Positions 3 to 14,640 of a DNA stretch of 17,928 nt are shown here, piece by piece. Position 1 is the stretch's first letter; each line of letters starts with the position of its first letter. The position numbers were made by a program, and so were the translations under genes. A model generated the notes under the pieces. It was not told the DNA's origin, made no database searches, and worked only from the letters and a program-made list of their open reading frames with translations. Origin of the DNA: Candidatus Micrarchaeota archaeon (GTDB taxonomy: Archaea; B1Sed10-29; JAJRYS01); the NCBI GenBank assembly GCA_964496415.1, contig CAZBZN010000011.1, positions 3,349 to 21,276 on the forward strand, given 5' to 3'.

Positions 3-428
3 GAAATAGAAGCCTTTGAAATAATAGACTTCCCAAACCCAATAAACGCCTACGAGTTCTGTAAAAAAATAGAAGCAAACATAGTCACGAACAAAGACGT
101 GCTAAAAAACAAAAGAGTTTATTCAACAACAATCGTTGACTCAATGAGAGCAATCTTAGAACTACCTGCAAACGAGTTCATAAAAATCTATGGGTCAACA
201 ACTGAAAGGGCATTAATATTCACAAACGTTACAATGGGAAGAAGCCCAATGGTAGCAATAAGAGTAACAGAACTAAAACCATCAGTAGTAGTACTTCACA
301 ACGTAGTAGAAGTAGACAAAATTGCTAAAAAAATCTCAGAAGTAGAAAAAGTACCATTAGTATCAACCCTTCTTCCAATAGATGAAATCAAAAAAAGAAT
401 AAAAGAAATAGCTAAAAACAACCACTAA
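3..428 (+). CDS. 3' part of an archaeal HTH transcriptional regulator (COG1709-like, C-terminal DRTGG-like domain); 5' end lies outside the window
   Basis: Frame is open from base 3 (EIEAFEIIDFP...) to TAA at 426-428, so the GTG at 99 is not the real start. Contains the family motif YGSTTERALIFTNVTMGRSPMVAIRV. Confidence 0.75.
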   Translation, partial: EIEAFEIIDFPNPINAYEFCKKIEANIVTNKDVLKNKRVYSTTIVDSMRAILELPANEFIKIYGSTTERALIFTNVTMGRSPMVAIRVTELKPSVVVLHNVVEVDKIAKKISEVEKVPLVSTLLPIDEIKKRIKEIAKNNH

Positions 429-430
429 CC

Positions 431-1069
431 TCAAACAAGCCTTCTTATAACATCCTTCAACTTCTCTGAATTCAAGTCAAAATTCTCAACAACAAAAACA
501 TCCAAAGGCAAGTTAGCTTTTATTGCACCATCAACATACTCCTCAGAAACCAACAAAAGCCTCTTAGGTTTTAAAAAGAAAGAAGCATTCTTCAAATCAT
601 TCAAATCAGAAGACGAGAACACCTTCTTAGCAAACACAACCAAGTCAAGCTTGTTCATGCGTGAAAGCAAACGATTAGCAACCTCCCTAATCATAGTTGA
701 AGTGAAAAACTCATGAGAAGAAAGCATTCTCTCAGTCACTTCATCTAAATCATAAAGCAAATCATTACCAAGCAAGACAACAAAATGAGGGTTAATCACT
801 CCAACTCCATCACTCTTAGGATAATAAAACACTGGCCTGTGCCATATGTTAATCTTTCTCCCAAGCTTATCAACAACACTTGCTGAAGGACCTGAAAGAG
901 TAGGAGAAAAAACATCCTCTTCAGGCTCTTTTTTAACTTCTTCAGCTATTATTGTAAAACTCTTAGGCTCAAAAGCCTTAACCAAAGAAAACAATACCTT
1001 CAACTCAAAATCAAGCAAGCCAAGCTTCTTAGCCTTATTAAACTCATTATCATTACCTATAAGCATCAT
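431..1069 (-). CDS. hypothetical protein, 212 aa
   Basis: Long ORF whose start overlaps the pyrG stop by 17 nt, consistent with coupling. No motif recognised. Confidence 0.7.
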   Translation of the reverse strand: MMLIGNDNEFNKAKKLGLLDFELKVLFSLVKAFEPKSFTIIAEEVKKEPEEDVFSPTLSGPSASVVDKLGRKINIWHRPVFYYPKSDGVGVINPHFVVLLGNDLLYDLDEVTERMLSSHEFFTSTMIREVANRLLSRMNKLDLVVFAKKVFSSSDLNDLKNASFFLKPKRLLLVSEEYVDGAIKANLPLDVFVVENFDLNSEKLKDVIRRLV

Positions 1070-2696
1070 TCAACTCACTATTCTCTTTTTCAAGCCCTGC
1101 CTTAACCAATCCAAAAAACAATGGGTTAGGCTTTCCAGGCCATGAAGTAAACTCAGGATGAGCTTGAGTTGCTACAAAAAAAGGATGACCTTTAACTTCT
1201 ATGAACTCAGCAAGCCTGCCATCAGGAGACTTGCCACTAACAAGCATGCCCTTTGATTCAAGCAAGTCATGGTATTCTGGATTAACTTCATACCTGTGCC
1301 TGTGTCTTTCAAAAACCACGCCGTCAGCTATTCTTCCTGCCTCTTCATAAAGCTTCCAAACCAAGCTACCCTTCACTAAAACAGCTGGGAACTCACCAAG
1401 CCTCATGGTTCCTCCTTTTTCATTAATTCCTCTCTGCTCAGGCAAAATATCAACAACCTTATGCTCTGCATGCGGGTTTATCTCAGAAGAATCAGCATCA
1501 AGCCCGCATACATTCCTAGCAAACTCAACCACTGCAAGCTGCATTCCAAAACAAAGCCCTAAGAAAGGCTTTTTGTTCTCACGGCAGTATTTTATAGCCT
1601 CAAGTTTTCCTTTCACTCCTGAAGAACCAAAACCACCTGGAACTATCACACAATCCACTTCCTCCAAATCCTTTGTAATGTTCTCGCTTAACGAGTTAAT
1701 CCACTTAATGACTGGCTTAGCGCCAAGCTTGGCGCAAGCATGCTTTACAGCCTCATTTACTGAAATATAAGAATCCTTTAACTCAAACTCGCCAGTGGCA
1801 ACATACTTACCAACAATACCCACCACTATTTCCTTTGAAGCATTCCTAAACTCATCAACTATCCTCTGCCACAAGTAAAGCTGGTTTCCTCTTGGCTTAA
1901 GCCCAAGCTTATCAAGAATAGCATCACCAAAACCCTGGCTCTCAAAAACCAAAGGAAGCTCGTAAATGTTCTCAACATCAGGATTGTTTATAACACACTC
2001 AGGCTTAACATTACAAAACAACGCAAGCTTCTGCCTACGTACAGAGTCAACCTCCCTCACTGACCTGCATACCAAAAAGTCTGGCTGTATGCCCATCTGC
2101 TGCAGGAACTTCACAGAATGCTGAGTAGGCTTTGTCTTAGGCTCTCCTAAAAACCCAGGCACTGGAACAAAAGAAACATGAACAAAAACAACCCTCTGAC
2201 CTAATTCAAGCTTAAGCTGCCTAGCTGCTTCCAAGAAAGGAACATTCTCATAATCACCAACAGTACCGCCAATCTCAACCAAAAGAATATCATTACCCTC
2301 AGCATTCTTCATTATAGCCTTTTTTATCTCATCAGTCAAATGAGGGATTATTTGAACTGTTTTCCCAAGATAATCCCCTTTTCTCTCTTTTTCAATAACC
2401 TTCTTGTAAACCTTTCCAGTAGTAAGGTTATGGTCTTTTGACAATGTTTTATGAAGAAAACGCTCGTAATTCCCTAAATCCTGGTCAATCTCACCACCAT
2501 CAGCTGTCACGAACACTTCACCATGCTCTGTTGGCCTCATAGTGCCAGCGTCAACATTAATGTAAGGGTCTATCTTCATGGCTGAGACTTCAAAACCCTT
2601 GCATGCAAGCAACCTTGCTATAGAAGAAGTGGTTATTCCTTTACCCAACCCGCTCATTACTCCACCAGTCACGAAAACAAGGCAAGGCGCACTCAT
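1053..2696 (-). CDS. pyrG: CTP synthase (glutamine-hydrolysing)
   Basis: FVTGGVMSGLGKG, KIDPYINVDAGTM, EHGEVFV, EIGGTVGD, KTKPTQHSV; GATase domain with PGGFG, GLCFGMQ, ERHRHRYEVN, HPE. Confidence 0.98.
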   Translation of the reverse strand: MSAPCLVFVTGGVMSGLGKGITTSSIARLLACKGFEVSAMKIDPYINVDAGTMRPTEHGEVFVTADGGEIDQDLGNYERFLHKTLSKDHNLTTGKVYKKVIEKERKGDYLGKTVQIIPHLTDEIKKAIMKNAEGNDILLVEIGGTVGDYENVPFLEAARQLKLELGQRVVFVHVSFVPVPGFLGEPKTKPTQHSVKFLQQMGIQPDFLVCRSVREVDSVRRQKLALFCNVKPECVINNPDVENIYELPLVFESQGFGDAILDKLGLKPRGNQLYLWQRIVDEFRNASKEIVVGIVGKYVATGEFELKDSYISVNEAVKHACAKLGAKPVIKWINSLSENITKDLEEVDCVIVPGGFGSSGVKGKLEAIKYCRENKKPFLGLCFGMQLAVVEFARNVCGLDADSSEINPHAEHKVVDILPEQRGINEKGGTMRLGEFPAVLVKGSLVWKLYEEAGRIADGVVFERHRHRYEVNPEYHDLLESKGMLVSGKSPDGRLAEFIEVKGHPFFVATQAHPEFTSWPGKPNPLFFGLVKAGLEKENSELNDAYR

Positions 2697-2720
2697 GGTT
2701 AATTGTATAGGAAAAGTTAG

Positions 2721-2728
2721 TATTTAAT
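2721..2728 (-). promoter_or_regulatory. putative TATA box of pyrG (leaderless transcript)
   Basis: Minus-strand ATTAAATA ends 25 nt upstream of the ATG at 2696; no SD motif in between. Confidence 0.5.
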
Positions 2729-2762
2729 CTTAACCAAACCAAATCAAAAAACAGATTAATGC

Positions 2763-2770
2763 AAAAAAGA
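2763..2770 (-). terminator. oligo-T tract, putative terminator of the structured ncRNA
   Basis: Minus-strand TCTTTTTT just 3' of the last helix (ends at 2777). Confidence 0.45.
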
Positions 2771-2774
2771 TGTG

Positions 2775-2965
2775 AATGCAAGGGTAACAAGTTCTTCCTG
2801 CCGAAGCAGAAAGAACTGCACCTCCCTCATCACCTCCTGGGCGATGCTGGAGTCACCCCTGCAATTCTCCCACGTCCCATCAAAAATGATGAAACGTGGA
2901 CAGAGCCCAGGCAAGAAAACCTCATGGGTTTCTTTTTAACCCTCATTCGAGGGACCTAGGATGCT
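2775..2965 (-). ncRNA. unassigned structured non-coding RNA, ~190 nt
   Basis: GC-rich island with seven helices found by eye, 8 G-U pairs that work only on the minus strand, a cUUCGg tetraloop, an upstream TATA box and a downstream T-tract. Confidence 0.75.
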
Positions 2966-2987
2966 AAAAGAATACTGCACTACCAAG

Positions 2988-2995
2988 TATTTAAA
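2988..2995 (-). promoter_or_regulatory. TATA box (with BRE) for the putative ncRNA
   Basis: Minus-strand gcaaagg-TTTAAATA; predicted TSS ~2965, immediately before the first helix (2960). Confidence 0.6.
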
Positions 2996-3129
2996 CCTTT
3001 GCATTAACCTTACAAATTTATAAATGCCAAAAGTGCCCTCTTAAACAATGTCCAAGCTGCAGAGCTTATACATATTTAACAACAGGAGATGCTTATGCTC
3101 CAGACCCAGCATGTGTTTTTGATTGGTAG
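2995..3129 (+). pseudogene. C-terminal fragment of a radical SAM/SPASM-domain protein, no start codon
   Basis: After TAA at 2992-2994 the frame reads TFALTLQIYKCQKCPLKQCPSCRAYTYLTTGDAYAPDPACVFDW*, matching the SPASM tail CxxC-x4/5-CxxCRAxAYxxTGDxxxxDPxC. No in-frame ATG/GTG/TTG. Confidence 0.7.
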
Positions 3130-4156
3130 CGGAGAAATAGAAGGTTTACTAGACACACTACAATTAACTTATACAAAAGTAAAAGAGTTAAGTGAAGTGC
3201 CAGTAGGCTCAGAGGTAGTTATTGACACAAATATAAAGCCGGGAAAGAAAGCAATCATGGAAAAGAAGCATAATGTGAAGATATATGATAGAGCAGATGT
3301 TATCTTAGCACTTTTCAAAAAACACGCTTCTCCTTTAGGAAGCCTTCAACTAAAACTCATTGAAATGCAAAGAAAGTACGCTATTGCAGGAGATATTGAA
3401 AGACTAAAATTAAGAAGACAGATAAAAATCATTAAAAACAAAATAGCAAGACTCCAGCAAGTCAAAGAAAACCCCCTATTGAAATTAAAAGAAAAAGGGT
3501 ATTATATTGTGCCAATGGTTGGGTATACTAATGCTGGTAAAAGTACTCTTTTTAATATACTGATTGGCAAGCAAAAAGCACCTACAAGAGATGAACTTTT
3601 TACGACAAGCATTGTACGGTGTGGTCTCTTGGATCTTGGCATAAAAGTAATACTTACTGATACTGTTGGATTCATAAAAGACATCCCTGAAAAACTTATT
3701 CCCGCTTACCACAGCACTTTAAATGTTATGAAGATCTCAGACCTTGTTATCCATGTGCTTGACTCCTCTGACCATGAAATTAGTTCAAAAAAAGCACTTG
3801 GAGAAGAAATAATAAAATCATATACAAACGCCCCTATTTTAACAGTGATGAATAAAAAAGACCTCATACCCTCCAAAAAAATAGCATCAAATGCAGTGCT
3901 TACTTCTGCTGTTAACAAAGATCTTGATAATTTATTGGAAGAAATATTAAACCACTTAAAACCATACGAAGAAACTATTTTTTTAAGCTATGAAAAAATA
4001 CAATTACTTCATACAATTCCCTTTACAGTGCACAAAAAAATTGAAAAACTTCAGGGTGGACTTAGAATCACTTTAAAAGGAAAAAAAGACATAGTCAAAA
4101 GAACAATAGCCTTATTGAAAAAACAATCTAAAAACTCTAAAAACCCTGCTCCTTAG
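3089..4156 (+). CDS. hflX: divergent HflX-family ribosome-associated GTPase; start uncertain (ATG 3089/3095 or GTG 3113)
   Basis: G1 VGYTNAGKSTLFN, G2 DELFTT, G3 TDTVGFI, G4 NKKD, G5 SA; N-terminal IYDRADVILALF resembles the HflX DRxxLILxIF motif. Confidence 0.85.
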   Translation: MLMLQTQHVFLIGSGEIEGLLDTLQLTYTKVKELSEVPVGSEVVIDTNIKPGKKAIMEKKHNVKIYDRADVILALFKKHASPLGSLQLKLIEMQRKYAIAGDIERLKLRRQIKIIKNKIARLQQVKENPLLKLKEKGYYIVPMVGYTNAGKSTLFNILIGKQKAPTRDELFTTSIVRCGLLDLGIKVILTDTVGFIKDIPEKLIPAYHSTLNVMKISDLVIHVLDSSDHEISSKKALGEEIIKSYTNAPILTVMNKKDLIPSKKIASNAVLTSAVNKDLDNLLEEILNHLKPYEETIFLSYEKIQLLHTIPFTVHKKIEKLQGGLRITLKGKKDIVKRTIALLKKQSKNSKNPAP

Positions 4157-4529
4157 CCCTCTTATACTCTTCATGAAGTTTTTTCACATGCCTTGAATCA
4201 ACTCTTCTTTTTCCAAAGCACTTATGAGGAACAAGCCCTCCTGTAAACTTTTTTGGGATATGAAGAAGCTCATGAATTATCACTTTTTCTTTTTCTTCTT
4301 GACTTAGCTTGTCAAAATGCTGTGACAAAACCTCAATTACATAATGCGGTTTTACTCCTAAAGCTTTCTGCCATATCTTAGGAAGCTCCCATATTCTTGC
4401 ATAAGCATTGGCTTTTGAGCCATAACTCCTCATGTATATTATCCTTGAAGAGTCAATATGCTCAAGTTTAAGAGTTCTGATTATGTCATTTGCTTTCTCC
4501 TGAACGTCTGGAGCGTAATGAAACTTCAT
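4137..4529 (-). CDS. putative zinc metallopeptidase (COG4900/phage-metallopeptidase-like)
   Basis: HEXXH in VIIHELLHIP, plus AYARIW and YVIEV. ATG 4529 preferred over TTG 4550 because a TATA-like TTTTAATT lies ~22 nt upstream. Confidence 0.8.
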   Translation of the reverse strand: MKFHYAPDVQEKANDIIRTLKLEHIDSSRIIYMRSYGSKANAYARIWELPKIWQKALGVKPHYVIEVLSQHFDKLSQEEKEKVIIHELLHIPKKFTGGLVPHKCFGKRRVDSRHVKKLHEEYKRAKEQGF

Positions 4530-4582
4530 GGTAAAATTAACTCTTTTCAAAATTAAAAGTCTTAGGATTTAACAAAACAAGA

Positions 4583-4604
4583 GAGGGAACGGAAACGTTC
4601 CCTC
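4583..4604. other. perfect 9-bp GC-rich hairpin in an intergenic spacer (terminator-like element or part of a small RNA)
   Basis: GAGGGAACG-GAAA-CGTTCCCTC. GNRA loop on plus; followed by TCTTGTTTTGTT on minus. Confidence 0.6.
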
Positions 4605-4681
4605 CAAGGCAACGGTGACGCATTCTGGAAAAAGGTCTGTTCAGATTTATTACTAAACGTTGAAATATTTAAAACCATAGG

Positions 4682-5125
4682 TCACAAAGTAACCACTAAG
4701 TAGTCAGTTACAATGCATATTATCAGTGCTGAGGCAATACTAATAAAAGAAACTTTTAAAGATTCTCTGAAATTTCCTTTTTCTGTAAGGTCTTCAAACA
4801 AGCTAAGACCCATTTTAACAGTTGCTATAAGGATTATCACTGCTGAAAGCATTCCAAAAATAACAAAACTACTTGGAATTCCAGTTACTTTGTAAATCCA
4901 GCCGTAAAAGATCCCTGCAAAAAAACTAACAATTGGAGAACCATAGCCAAAGAACAACAAGCCAAAAGAAAACATTATTATCGTTATTAATAAAGTGGTG
5001 GAGTTAGCTGGAAAAACTAAAAGTGAATAAGGAAGCCCGTAGTACTTCATTCCAAAAAAGCCTATGAAAAGCAATACTAATGATGAGAGGTAAACTATTA
5101 ATTCTTTTAAAGTAAACAAAGCCAT
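4682..5125 (-). CDS. integral membrane protein, ~4-5 TM, unknown function
   Basis: Hydrophobic 147-aa ORF abutting the upstream gene (stop 5126, start 5125). Confidence 0.75.
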   Translation of the reverse strand: MALFTLKELIVYLSSLVLLFIGFFGMKYYGLPYSLLVFPANSTTLLITIIMFSFGLLFFGYGSPIVSFFAGIFYGWIYKVTGIPSSFVIFGMLSAVIILIATVKMGLSLFEDLTEKGNFRESLKVSFISIASALIICIVTDYLVVTL

Positions 5126-5998
5126 TCACTTCACCCTCTTAGCAAGCCTTGTATGATAAGCATGAGCCATTGTCTCAACTTTCCTGTGAAAGTCATAAAC
5201 TTCTCTTGAACAAATAATAAACTGATAAACTAAAGCAAAACTTATGCCAAGTATTGTTAGCAGTATGTTAAAATAAGGAACTATTATTGGGCTAAGGACA
5301 GACAAAGGAAAAGTAAAAACTAAAAGTAATCCAATTGGAACAGCTAAAGCTACGCCCATTGAAAGCAAATAAACTCTGATTACTCCTCTTAAATTAAACC
5401 TTAAGAAGTCAAAAGCATTAAACAATGCTTCTCCTATAGAGTCTCCTGCAGCAGCATTAGGAATAGCTAAAGCAAAAATCACTGCAAAGTTAAGCAAGAG
5501 CACTAACTGAAAGCCTTGAAGTGAAAAAGAAGAAATGAAAAACACTACAACAGAAGCAATAAAAGCAAGCGCTATTGATGAAAAAGTCAGCCCCTTAAAA
5601 CAAGAAGAATTGTACTTGTTCTTGAAATTAAATACCGCGCGTGATACTACTGCAAAGACCAAGTACTGTAAGAACAAGCTTACAAAAACCAATAAAACAA
5701 TAATATTTGAAAAAGGATTTGAAAAGAATTCAACAACTTGAGAAGTTGTTATACCTTTAGTTATTCCTCCGAACCTCATGATAGGGATTATTCCATCAGC
5801 TCCTATCTCATCATACTTTGAAATATTCGTAGCTGACAGTGAAATCTCTCCTCCGAAAAATCTTTCAGTAACAGAAAATATATCTTCATTTGAAAAATAA
5901 ACAGAAGCAGATAATAAAAAGCAGATAACTAAAGCTGGCAAAAGAATCAAGCTTATCTTCTTCTTAAGCATGATGAAAGGATAAGTAACCAAGTCCAT
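5126..5998 (-). CDS. integral membrane protein, ~6 TM, unknown function
   Basis: 290-aa ORF with several long hydrophobic stretches; starts 11 nt after the PAP2 stop. Confidence 0.75.
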   Translation of the reverse strand: MDLVTYPFIMLKKKISLILLPALVICFLLSASVYFSNEDIFSVTERFFGGEISLSATNISKYDEIGADGIIPIMRFGGITKGITTSQVVEFFSNPFSNIIVLLVFVSLFLQYLVFAVVSRAVFNFKNKYNSSCFKGLTFSSIALAFIASVVVFFISSFSLQGFQLVLLLNFAVIFALAIPNAAAGDSIGEALFNAFDFLRFNLRGVIRVYLLSMGVALAVPIGLLLVFTFPLSVLSPIIVPYFNILLTILGISFALVYQFIICSREVYDFHRKVETMAHAYHTRLAKRVK

Positions 5999-7605: not shown

Positions 7606-8351
7606 ACTAACACTGCCCCAGAACTCATAACTTTATTTTCACCAACGAACACTTCAGGCCTTATCAAAAAACTAAGGCTGCCATCATCAAACTCAAGAGT
7701 AACTATCCCCCTGCTTTTTCTCATGTTATTCTCCTCGGAAAAACCAACAAGAGGGTTGACGCCAATGCTGATTCTTTTAAGCTTTCTTTTTTTCTTCAAA
7801 TTAACTGTAACCCCATTCCTAAGAATGATTTCCTTCTTTGAAGAGAAACCAAAATCAGGGCAAACAATTCCCTTAGCTGACTTCACTGAAACGATAACCT
7901 CTCCAAAAGGCACGACTCCGTAAGACCTTTCAGATGGAAGCAATTCATCTTTCACAATCTTTCCAGGCTCTATGACAAGATTAGTTGCTTGGGACAATAT
8001 CTTAACCTTTCCAAGCTTAAGAGTTCTTGCAAGCTCTTTTGCCTGAGCATCAACCTGAGAAAAACCTGTTTCAACAAGCCTTTTAAACTCTCTTGGCTTG
8101 CAGTTCACAAAAAGCAACCTTGACTTAAGTCTTTCAAAAGCCTTTGAAAACTGCCTACTTCCAAAAACAACGCAAGCATCAAACTTTCTAATCAAATCCT
8201 TGACAAGGCTTGCTTTTTCAGAAGGAACAATCACTACCACTTCTCCTTTAAGGTTAACAACCTTCTCCCATTCACCAAAATCATTTTCAAAAACCAGCAA
8301 AAGCTTGCTCTTCTTAGGCAATTTTAACAAGTTCTTCAAGTCACCATTCAT
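7602..8351 (-). CDS. degenerate M29 (aminopeptidase T/leucyl aminopeptidase)-like protein, probably inactive
   Basis: ATNLVI, VPFGEV, ISIGVNP and KSRGIVTL echo M29 motifs GTDL, LPxGEV, ExGIGxN and KxxGTxHxA. ATG 8351 overlaps the ligase stop by 11 nt and is preferred over 8390. Confidence 0.55.
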   Translation of the reverse strand: MNGDLKNLLKLPKKSKLLLVFENDFGEWEKVVNLKGEVVVIVPSEKASLVKDLIRKFDACVVFGSRQFSKAFERLKSRLLFVNCKPREFKRLVETGFSQVDAQAKELARTLKLGKVKILSQATNLVIEPGKIVKDELLPSERSYGVVPFGEVIVSVKSAKGIVCPDFGFSSKKEIILRNGVTVNLKKKRKLKRISIGVNPLVGFSEENNMRKSRGIVTLEFDDGSLSFLIRPEVFVGENKVMSSGAVLV

Positions 8352-9489
8352 CAGCACACGCTCCTTCAAGAATAGCTTTAGTCTTATCATTAGTCTTAGG
8401 ATAATGCCTGCTTAGCTTAAACTTAACCCCTTTAGAAGTTTTCTTTTTTTCTTTAACAGTAACTATAACCCCAAGATTTTTAAGGTTCTCAACAAACTTA
8501 AACCCAAATTCTTCACTTGGAACAAGAAGTTCAAAGTCCTCAGTAACCTCTTCTCCTTCAGCTATCCTTTTGATTGTTTCAACCATTGGAATCAAAATAC
8601 TTTTACCAAGCTCTTTTGCTTCTTTTTCAAGTTCTTTGCCTTCAAGCCCTAATTCATAAGCTTGAAAAGCTTCTCTTAAAACACGGGAATACATGAAAGC
8701 CAAACCATAATCTTCAAAAAAAGTAAAAGCATACTTCAAATCATTATTAGTGCTTTGGTTTGCAGTGTATTTAAGCATTTTCATGCCATCAAAACTCTTA
8801 AGCACTACCCCCTCTCTGCCGTCTTCACCAAGCTTCCTGACAAGTTTTAAAACTTCCTCACCTGAACTAACCTCGCCGAAAAAATTAACATGCTTCAAGC
8901 CATACTTTTCAACAAGCCTTAGTTTTTCATCATAAGAAACAGGACTATTATCAACCATGTTTCTTATGTCAAAAACAAAGTAACCAAACTCTCTTGCTTC
9001 AGGGTAAGACTTCTCCTGATAAGGATTCTGAAGACCAACAACCTCCCCGCATAACATTAACTCAGGGTTTTCCTCAAAAAATGCTATACTACCATCACTT
9101 TCAAGCTGGTGTCTTATTCTTAAAGTAGTGTAAGGGCAATAAAGCCCTCTTCTTGTAAAACTATAAAGCTTCCCTTTAAGCATCACGGTTCTAACATTAT
9201 ACCCGTCCATCTTTTCTTCTGCAAAAACCTTTTCACCTGAAAGCCTTTTCTTAAATGCTGAAGAAATAACAAAAGCCCTTGGAATCTTAGGATAACCTCT
9301 CACAATAGTAAGAGGGTCAAGAACAATAACCGTTCCCTTCTCAACTTTCCTAAAAGCTTCCCTAAAACGATAATACTTAAATCCATCATAATTAACTTTA
9401 ACAATATCATTCTTTTCAAGCCTTTGCTCAAATTCTCTTTCAGTAAGTCCTAAAAACTCAAGAACCTTAGAAAAATCCTTAAACTTCAT
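8341..9489 (-). CDS. ATP-dependent RNA ligase, Rnl3/Pab1020 family
   Basis: RGYPKIPR, motif I EKMDGYNVR, III GEVVG..NPY, IIIa FVFD, IV REGVVLK, V LKY; 382 aa with C-terminal extension typical of this family. Confidence 0.92.
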   Translation of the reverse strand: MKFKDFSKVLEFLGLTEREFEQRLEKNDIVKVNYDGFKYYRFREAFRKVEKGTVIVLDPLTIVRGYPKIPRAFVISSAFKKRLSGEKVFAEEKMDGYNVRTVMLKGKLYSFTRRGLYCPYTTLRIRHQLESDGSIAFFEENPELMLCGEVVGLQNPYQEKSYPEAREFGYFVFDIRNMVDNSPVSYDEKLRLVEKYGLKHVNFFGEVSSGEEVLKLVRKLGEDGREGVVLKSFDGMKMLKYTANQSTNNDLKYAFTFFEDYGLAFMYSRVLREAFQAYELGLEGKELEKEAKELGKSILIPMVETIKRIAEGEEVTEDFELLVPSEEFGFKFVENLKNLGVIVTVKEKKKTSKGVKFKLSRHYPKTNDKTKAILEGACADEW

Positions 9490-14519: not shown

Positions 14520-14640
14520 TGCCCAGGCAGCGTCTCGGCTTTCCCGCACGTAAGTGCAGTACACACCGAATCGCTGGACGGCTTAACTTCCGGGTTCGGG
14601 ATGAGACCGGGTGTTTCCCGTCCGCTGTGACCGCCGGGCA
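14520..14640 (-). rRNA. rrf: 5S rRNA, stand-alone
   Basis: Minus strand TGCCCGGCGGTCACAGCG...ACACCCGGTCTCATCCCGAACCCGGAAGTTAAGC...GGGAAA...CGCTGCCTGGGCA; 121 nt, ends pair, conserved CCGAAC loop. Confidence 0.97.

Follow-up and report, generated by a model that had tools for sequence, protein, structure and literature searches.

Organization of the locus

The window analyzed here is a 17,928-nt stretch of contig C11 (positions 3349-21276) from the genome of a Candidatus Micrarchaeota archaeon, whose assembly amounts to 687 kb in 41 contigs, is 91% complete, and has a GC content of 36.3%. Within the window, a 392-bp spacer separates the CTP synthase gene pyrG from the divergently oriented gene of an HflX-type GTPase, and the minus strand of the spacer carries a candidate RNA gene with a promoter, three predicted structural domains, and an oligo-T end (Table 1). 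The candidate RNA gene is present in a single copy and has a GC content of 50%, compared with 36% for the genome. It is probably an independent gene of a structured non-coding RNA (ncRNA), which is neither a leader of pyrG nor a member of a known family. The most defensible description is that of a single-copy, lineage-restricted RNA gene that appears to be under strand-specific structural constraint and is tied to hflX by gain or loss. That the RNA is transcribed, is stable, and acts in trans is what we infer.

The promoter contains a purine-rich AAAGG followed by the TATA box TTTAAATA, which is present where the first-pass annotation, made from the sequence alone, had placed it. The distance from the TATA box to the first structured base is about 24 nt, similar to that in the genes of 5S ribosomal RNA (rRNA), with the TATA-like TTTTAAAC, and of sRNA2, a second small RNA of the window described below. 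Transcription would start near A2965/G2964. Because TTTAAATA is found 123 times in the genome, the TATA box alone is no proof of a promoter. The promoter 10-mer GGTTTAAATA is identical to that of a leucine transfer RNA (tRNA-Leu) gene on contig C2. The T tract annotated after Domain 3 corresponds to a T6 run, and a second T6 run follows it. Oligo-T runs of 5-6 T are described in one study as efficient terminators in archaea (PMC2253867). The 10-mer shared with the tRNA-Leu gene and the two consecutive T6 tracts agree with the earlier claim that the RNA has a promoter and terminator of its own, and the separate TATA box that had been noted for pyrG is present as well. A scan for sigma-70 promoters and hairpin terminators found none; the scan is of the bacterial type, with archaeal signals outside its scope.

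Table 1. Positions of the candidate RNA gene, its predicted parts, and the neighboring genes, in window coordinates
Feature	Position	Strand	Evidence or remark
pyrG, CTP synthase	1053-2696	−	domain match, CTP_synth_N 4e-115
TATA box of pyrG, ATTAAATA	2728-2721	−	25 nt ahead of the pyrG ATG
3′ tail of candidate RNA: ACA (2773-2771), T6 terminator 1 (2768-2763), T6 terminator 2 (2751-2746)	2746-2773	−	sequence
Inverted repeat (13 nt), downstream arm	2753-2765		pairs with 2998-3010
Candidate RNA gene, about 200 nt	2965 to ~2764	−	TATA box, predicted fold, T tracts
Domain 3: three-way junction, 11-12-bp closing helix 2863-2852/2788-2777	2777-2863	−	predicted fold, z −6.36
Block CUUGUUAC, complement of GUAACAAG just 5′ of helix 45 in 16S rRNA	2784-2791	−	7-8 bp could form
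Domain 3, hairpin b: 12 bp, cUUCGg	2817-2790	−	predicted fold
Second Shine-Dalgarno (SD)-like site, GGAGGUG	2825-2819	−	sequence
Perfect SD-type 10-mer AGGAGGUGAU (DNA AGGAGGTGAT)	2829-2838	−	loop and 3′ strand of hairpin a
Domain 3, hairpin a: symmetric AG/AG internal loop, CAGGA loop	2846-2828	−	predicted fold
Domain 2: 13-bp hairpin, UUUU loop	2870-2899	−	predicted fold, z −7.27
Domain 1: three-way junction, 7-bp closing helix 2960-2954/2912-2906	2906-2960	−	predicted fold, z −2.79
Domain 1, hairpins: 5 bp, GAAU; 8 bp, 1x1 internal loop	2953-2940 and 2934-2913	−	predicted fold
Promoter: AAAGG, then TATA box TTTAAATA (2995-2988)	2988-3000	−	sequence
Inverted repeat (13 nt), upstream arm	2998-3010		12/13 complementary to 2753-2765; just outside TATA box
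hflX-type GTPase gene, highly divergent, transcribed divergently from the RNA	3089-4156	+	MMR_HSR1; weak N-terminal GTP-binding domain

Predicted structure and strand asymmetry

Each fold was compared with those of 200 dinucleotide shuffles. The minus strand (208 nt) has a folding energy of −96.0 kcal/mol, compared with −62.9 ± 4.4 kcal/mol for the shuffled sequences (z −7.56), and none of the 200 shuffles folds as well. The plus strand reaches −70.6 kcal/mol (z −4.69). For Domains 1, 2, and 3, the plus-strand z values are −1.62, −6.19, and −4.14, respectively, against the minus-strand values in Table 1. Domains 2 and 3 are predicted to be still folded at 80 °C. The division into three domains is predicted from thermodynamics only; the positions that the first-pass annotation had given for the three domains and their hairpins all agree with the sequence and with the computed fold.

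The centroid fold contains 70 base pairs, of which 62 are Watson-Crick and eight are G-U, and its helices include no A-C mismatches. All eight G-U positions read as A-C or C-A on the plus strand, in agreement with the number of such pairs that had been noted before. A decaying DNA palindrome predicts equal numbers of G-U and A-C, and the 8:0 split (two-sided binomial p ~0.008; this value and the expected 10-mer count given below are our own arithmetic) therefore argues that the minus-strand RNA is maintained. The helices are intact only in the minus-strand RNA, in keeping with the earlier proposal that selection appears to act on it.

Comparison with known RNA families and coding potential

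The window was scanned with the 4227 models of Rfam 15 at gathering thresholds, at which the 5S rRNA alone passes, and positions 2650-3100 were also scanned permissively (E ≤ 10). The permissive scan yielded seven rows, all with E ≥ 2.8 and with 12-16.4 bits against thresholds of 45-90 bits. There is no row at the locus for signal recognition particle (SRP) RNA (RF01857) or for RNase P RNA (RF00373); the real genes are located on other contigs of the genome (G000), at G000:C23:11373-11647 (155.5 bits) and G000:C36:3879-4123 (144.7 bits), respectively. ARAGORN, which misses cassette-bearing tRNAs in this genome, detected no tRNA gene in the window, and no T-loop or D-loop consensus is visible in the RNA. 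The first-pass annotation had excluded RNase P RNA, SRP RNA, and tRNA and had not recognized the family; the searches concur on both points, as no family was found with E < 2.8 in the cmscan-type check. Literature searches for structured ncRNAs in DPANN, the ultra-small archaea, and for ncRNAs that bind the anti-SD sequence found nothing relevant among the entries listed.

Guide RNAs must exist in this genome, which encodes Nop10, fibrillarin, and two homologs of L7Ae but has no annotated guides. The candidate RNA could be an atypical one, either a multi-hairpin H/ACA-like guide or a guide of another ribonucleoprotein. H/ACA RNAs have a pseudouridylation pocket, a large internal loop about 14-16 nt from the ACA, and a kink-turn (K-turn) or K-loop in the upper stem, and C/D RNAs carry RUGAUGA and CUGA boxes. 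The ACA of the candidate RNA is positioned directly after a GAA/UUC extension of the Domain 3 helix, a few nucleotides before the 3′ end, and one perfect C-box-like GUGAUGA is located at 2833-2827. However, the helix beside the ACA is continuous over about 15 bp and has no pocket, and the predicted fold contains no K-turn or K-loop, the only internal loop there being the symmetric 2x2 AG/AG loop. Neither Domain 1 nor Domain 2 is followed by an ANA box, CUGA occurs nowhere in the 200 nt, and the best H/ACA row of the Rfam scan has 13.2 bits and E 6.6. We consider a guide function improbable.

The locus is overlapped by three open reading frames (ORFs), none of which has a match in Pfam. For the plus-strand ORF of 66 amino acids (aa), a search of 5.8 billion proteins returned no sequence other than the ORF itself. 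On the minus strand, a frame of 21-24 aa (AUG 2830 or GUG 2821) or one of 52 aa could make the RNA a messenger of a small protein, resembling a bacterial type I toxin mRNA with a sequestered ribosome-binding site. The two strong SD-like sites are half within a hairpin, and the frame is open to a UAA at 2758-2756, between the T tracts. Upstream of 524 long ORFs, AGGTG is most frequent at −10 and GGTGA at −9, which shows that this archaeon uses SD pairing; however, neither SD-like site has a start codon at the usual distance. In addition, terminator 1 precedes the stop codon, the frame runs within helices, and the peptide is, in our reading, too little hydrophobic for a membrane toxin. Of the explanations considered here, translation of the RNA is the one to which we give the least credence.

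Relationship to pyrG and hflX

The candidate RNA gene has the same orientation as pyrG and lies 70 nt upstream of it, and attenuation of pyrG occurs in some bacteria. The RNA could thus be a cis-acting leader or attenuator, for example one with pyrimidine-responsive read-through of the T tracts. However, pyrG has its own TATA box at a distance typical of leaderless mRNAs, and two consecutive T6 tracts intervene between the RNA and the gene. Among 17 other genomes of the order, pyrG was detected in ten, and the element is absent from all ten pyrG loci. In genome G004, which has the closest full-length pyrG match (69% identity), the stop codon of a metallopeptidase gene is about 25 nt from pyrG. 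A leader function is very improbable. The available evidence, including the synteny check that the first-pass annotation had recommended, agrees with its preference for an independent ncRNA over a pyrG leader.

The gene order in the window is sRNA2 (~4645-4575), a metallopeptidase gene (4550-4137), hflX, the candidate RNA, and pyrG. In G004, the order is sRNA2, the metallopeptidase gene, and pyrG. The candidate RNA and hflX together thus form a block of about 1.4 kb that is missing in G004, indicating an insertion in the genome studied here or a deletion in G004. The hflX-type gene on the plus strand and the minus-strand gene with the PhageMetallopep domain converge, and their 3′ ends overlap by 20 nt (4137-4156).

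The GTPase is 30-34% identical to proteins named HflX. No ortholog was found in the four other genera of the family, and the only full-length relative in the order is encoded by genome G006 (33% identity). Synteny searches that started from pyrG and from the GTPase did not find the RNA. A scan of metagenomes with the GTPase gave 461 pattern matches, from which three loci were confirmed; one is close, with 100% identity to window positions 89-5795, and the other two are distant GTPases.

Distribution, strain variants, and a possible mobile origin

Public reads that contain the window DNA come from hydrothermal-vent metagenomes only, namely three DNA runs (X1, X2, and X3), the contigs of which were compared with the window over positions 2300-3500. 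No RNA run is among those listed. The X1 contig is identical to the window, and its run may be the one from which this DNA was obtained. The X2 contig, which covers 2300-2997, is unchanged throughout the RNA and differs from the window at two sites of the 69-nt spacer, 2744 and 2739 (the latter a deletion), and at one site in pyrG, 2692. The X3 contig (259 nt, depth 2.8) differs by two minus-strand substitutions, A2887 to G and U2892 to C, which convert an A-U pair to G-U and a U-G pair to C-G. Both are located in Domain 2 and keep the pairing. The strain variants are consistent with constraint on the predicted structure, and they are far too few for covariation.

The genome contains numerous GC-rich hairpin cassettes beside tRNA and SRP RNA genes. 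The candidate RNA gene is not a copy of the cassettes of tRNA genes, because the best non-self match of the whole 233 nt in its own genome (blastn-short) is an AT-rich segment of only 15 nt (E 0.12). A pattern scan of the genome contigs with a 24-mer gave no matches. A 20-mer scan of viral contigs gave one, which is a coding GGDL repeat that does not match the RNA model and was discarded.

The unit of promoter, RNA, and terminator is framed exactly by a 13-nt inverted repeat, as a miniature inverted-repeat transposable element (MITE) would be by its terminal inverted repeats. Comparable inverted repeats are common, with 433 pairs at a spacing of 150-400 nt genome-wide. The placement alone is notable; by a post hoc estimate, its position-specific chance is near 1e-3. 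No further exact copy of the repeat arm was found, and no target-site duplication is visible at the flanks. The first-pass annotation had named many genomic copies with target-site duplications, as expected of a MITE, as evidence against its proposal; a single copy was found.

The main rival to an independent RNA gene is a hairpin array or mobile cassette of recent origin, specific to the lineage and without cellular function. The lineage generates palindromic modules rich in GC, and the unit would be one of unique sequence that carries a promoter or is located behind one. This reading would be in keeping with the abundance of hairpin cassettes in the genome, the confinement of the RNA to one species, the near-perfect 12-13-bp hairpins of Domains 2 and 3b, the inverted repeat (12/13) enclosing the whole unit, and the presence of the RNA and hflX as an indel relative to G004. 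However, the unit is single-copy, with no part recurring among the matches listed; no other copy of the repeat arm was found; and inverted repeats of similar quality are frequent. The 8:0 split of G-U and A-C suggests that selection has acted on the minus-strand RNA and not on DNA, the unit has a complete promoter and two terminators, and both X3 substitutions keep the pairing. We regard a functionless cassette as unlikely, although it is the most serious of the competing explanations.

Several results weigh against an independent functional RNA gene. BLAST found the gene in none of 40 other genomes. A single-sequence covariance model of the RNA gene (201 positions, 70 pairs) was searched by phylum and by class, which gave an identical set of 31 genomes, and the 30 genomes besides that of the window contained one weak hit, which is probably spurious; searches in two further phyla found none in one and 17 genomes, respectively. 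Domain 1 by itself is weakly supported by the modeled fold, as two of the 200 minus-strand shuffles match it. The RNA gene has no homologs beyond near-identical vent metagenome DNA, so that no covariation backs the predicted fold or a function of the RNA. Near-perfect hairpins of 12-13 bp and a range of one species would also be expected of a young, possibly functionless element.

The weak covariance hit was found in G004 (L017 1501-1596, minus strand; 23.9 bits, E 1.6e-4) and was rejected. The hit is limited to Domain 1, lies across the end of sepF together with the SD site and start of the next plus-strand gene, and shares no synteny with the window. It has a GC content of 35% and folds no better than shuffled sequences (z −1.3).

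A possible link to the ribosome

The DNA form of the SD-type 10-mer in Domain 3, AGGAGGTGAT, has a single copy on the two strands of the 687-kb genome, the one within the candidate RNA. The 16S rRNAs of six relatives end in GAUCACCUCCU. Opening of the 10-mer would cost 4.5 kcal/mol and its duplex with a generic 16S tail has −17.4 kcal/mol, resulting in a net energy of −12.9 kcal/mol. The block CUUGUUAC is positioned 37 nt downstream of the 10-mer, and its match to the flank of helix 45 is weak evidence (about 0.02 given the SD-like site). The corresponding 16S segment of relatives reads AUAACAAG, GCAACAAG, or GUAACAAG. The combination of GGAGGTG with CTTGTTA following within 10-100 nt is found only here in the genome.

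These features, together with the use of SD pairing in this archaeon, suggest a mechanism in which Domain 3 would present the 10-nt SD sequence on the tip of an easily opened hairpin. The RNA might serve as a decoy or clamp by pairing with the 16S rRNA 3′ end on both flanks of helix 45, through the 10-mer and CUUGUUAC, and might act together with the adjacent HflX, gained or lost along with the RNA. One study describes HflX as a factor that splits ribosomes (PMC4770234). The RNA and HflX could park or silence small ribosomal subunits, those of the archaeon itself or those of its host cell, and would then constitute an RNA-based hibernation or interference factor. Such tiny archaea depend on a host cell, and its ribosomes are also a conceivable target, because both 16S target segments are nearly universal. 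No RNA-based hibernation or interference factor is known to us in archaea, and no literature search aimed at archaeal hibernation factors was made. A link of the RNA to the ribosome through pairing with the 16S tail is the mechanism that we favor, yet it is speculative and has a small likelihood in our judgment, and its extension to silencing of subunits with HflX is slightly less likely still.

Several observations argue against this mechanism. The 10-mer was spotted by eye, after the fact, and about 0.9 copies are expected from base composition. The duplex with the whole tail has −49.9 kcal/mol, compared with −40.2 ± 4.5 kcal/mol for shuffled sequences (minimum −54.9), a difference of about two standard deviations. 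The 16S rRNA of the closest relative contains AUAACAAG, not GUAACAAG, and the 3′ end of the 16S rRNA of this archaeon is outside the assembly. Genes of the KsgA/Dim1 and Dim2 types are encoded, leaving no obvious protein gap for the RNA to fill. The HflX-type gene of G006 has no such RNA beside it. The plus strand was also considered as a relic of a 16S 3′ end; in a local alignment to the 16S end of a relative, only the 10-mer aligns, with a score of 20, compared with a mean of 15.6 and a maximum of 22 for shuffles, and the strand is thus no recognizable relic of rRNA.

Some further observations concern the 16S rRNA and its maturation. Of the 16S rRNA gene, the 5′ end is assembled, at the end of contig C10 (G000:C10:23100-23464), though the search with the small-subunit model reported no match in this genome. 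The normally universal GUAACAAGG before helix 45 varies within the order (L034-L038, L041), with AUAACAAGG, GCAACAAGG, and GUAACAAGG observed. A search for the Nob1 zinc ribbon gave no match in any control genome.

Other small RNAs and hairpin cassettes

The sRNA2 gene (~70 nt; 4575-4645, minus strand) has the promoter TTTTAAATA at 4672-4664. Its 5′ part of about 35 nt is nearly invariant (ACAGACCYUUUYUCCA..GCGUCACCGUU) and is followed by a variable GC hairpin with three covarying pairs and a U tract. It was found in the window and at the loci of five relatives belonging to two families of the order, usually a few hundred nucleotides upstream of pyrG, and has no match in Rfam. Pairing of the candidate RNA with sRNA2 was considered and rejected, as it is no better than chance, being equaled by 71% of shuffles. 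A sequence similar to the 5′ motif of sRNA2 but shorter (GAACAGACCUUUUUCC-GUCACCGUG-CUCUUGUUUUG) is located at G000:C8:25775-25860 (plus strand). Another GCGUCACC and UUGGAGGCGAUCUC in two copies lie downstream of this sequence, which may be a paralog of sRNA2.

Several GC-rich intergenic islands resemble tRNA genes interrupted or flanked by cassettes and are not called by ARAGORN: C5:6788-7025, C25:480-760, C26:720-958, C32:1634-1941, C4:19590-19830, C5:32172-32374, and C1:40030-40330. Just upstream of the window, at G000:C11:2617-3072, a GC-rich motif (GGCTGGGTGAGCC..CTCCATCCTC.CC) occurs twice, about 330 nt apart, in a long AT-rich spacer.

The window also contains a stand-alone 5S rRNA gene (14522-14638, minus strand; 81.6 bits) with its TATA-like sequence about 24 nt upstream; it is not beside a 16S or 23S rRNA gene. 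An RNA ligase gene of the Rnl3/Pab1020 type, with RNA_ligase and Lig_C domains, is located at 8341-9489 on the minus strand. Ligases of this type circularize small RNAs in other archaea.

Significance and comparison with known systems

What is known of ultra-small symbiotic archaea comes almost entirely from metagenome bins, and the ncRNAs that they contain are essentially uncharted. The candidate RNA gene has no counterpart among the 4227 curated families. If the RNA is functional, even a genome of 0.69 Mb keeps a lineage-specific structured RNA. If the link to the ribosome is real, the RNA would target the 16S rRNA 3′ end, which is universally conserved. If the unit is instead a young cassette with a captured promoter, the palindrome-generating process of the lineage can yield new transcribed RNAs.

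The candidate RNA resembles HgcC, HgcE, HgcF, and HgcG of Methanocaldococcus, which Klein et al. reportedly identified in 2002 as stand-alone ncRNA genes, in being a GC-rich folded intergenic island in an AT-rich archaeon with its own TATA box and oligo-T end. In contrast to the Hgc RNAs, which are shorter, it comprises three domains, occurs in a single species, and has no match in Rfam, whose models presumably include the Hgc families. SRP RNA and RNase P RNA are of the same size class and likewise have GC-rich helices and three-way junctions, but the candidate RNA matches neither model. With archaeal H/ACA guides it shares several hairpin domains in about 200 nt, an ACA by the last helix near the 3′ end, and a genome encoding the machinery, whereas it has no pocket, K-turn, or ANA box after its other hairpins. 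Like an antisense version of the 3′ end of 16S rRNA, it carries AGGAGGUGAU and CUUGUUAC as flanking blocks in this order, separated by a hairpin; however, their spacing is 37 nt, compared with 26 nt in the 16S rRNAs of relatives, and the intervening hairpin is unrelated. The hairpin cassettes of this genome, which are similar to the repetitive extragenic palindromes and bacterial interspersed mosaic elements (REP/BIME), are likewise species-specific and built of GC-rich nested hairpins. The candidate RNA differs from them in its unique sequence and single copy, in having a promoter of its own and not that of a tRNA gene, in its longer helices, and in the G-U constraint on the RNA strand.

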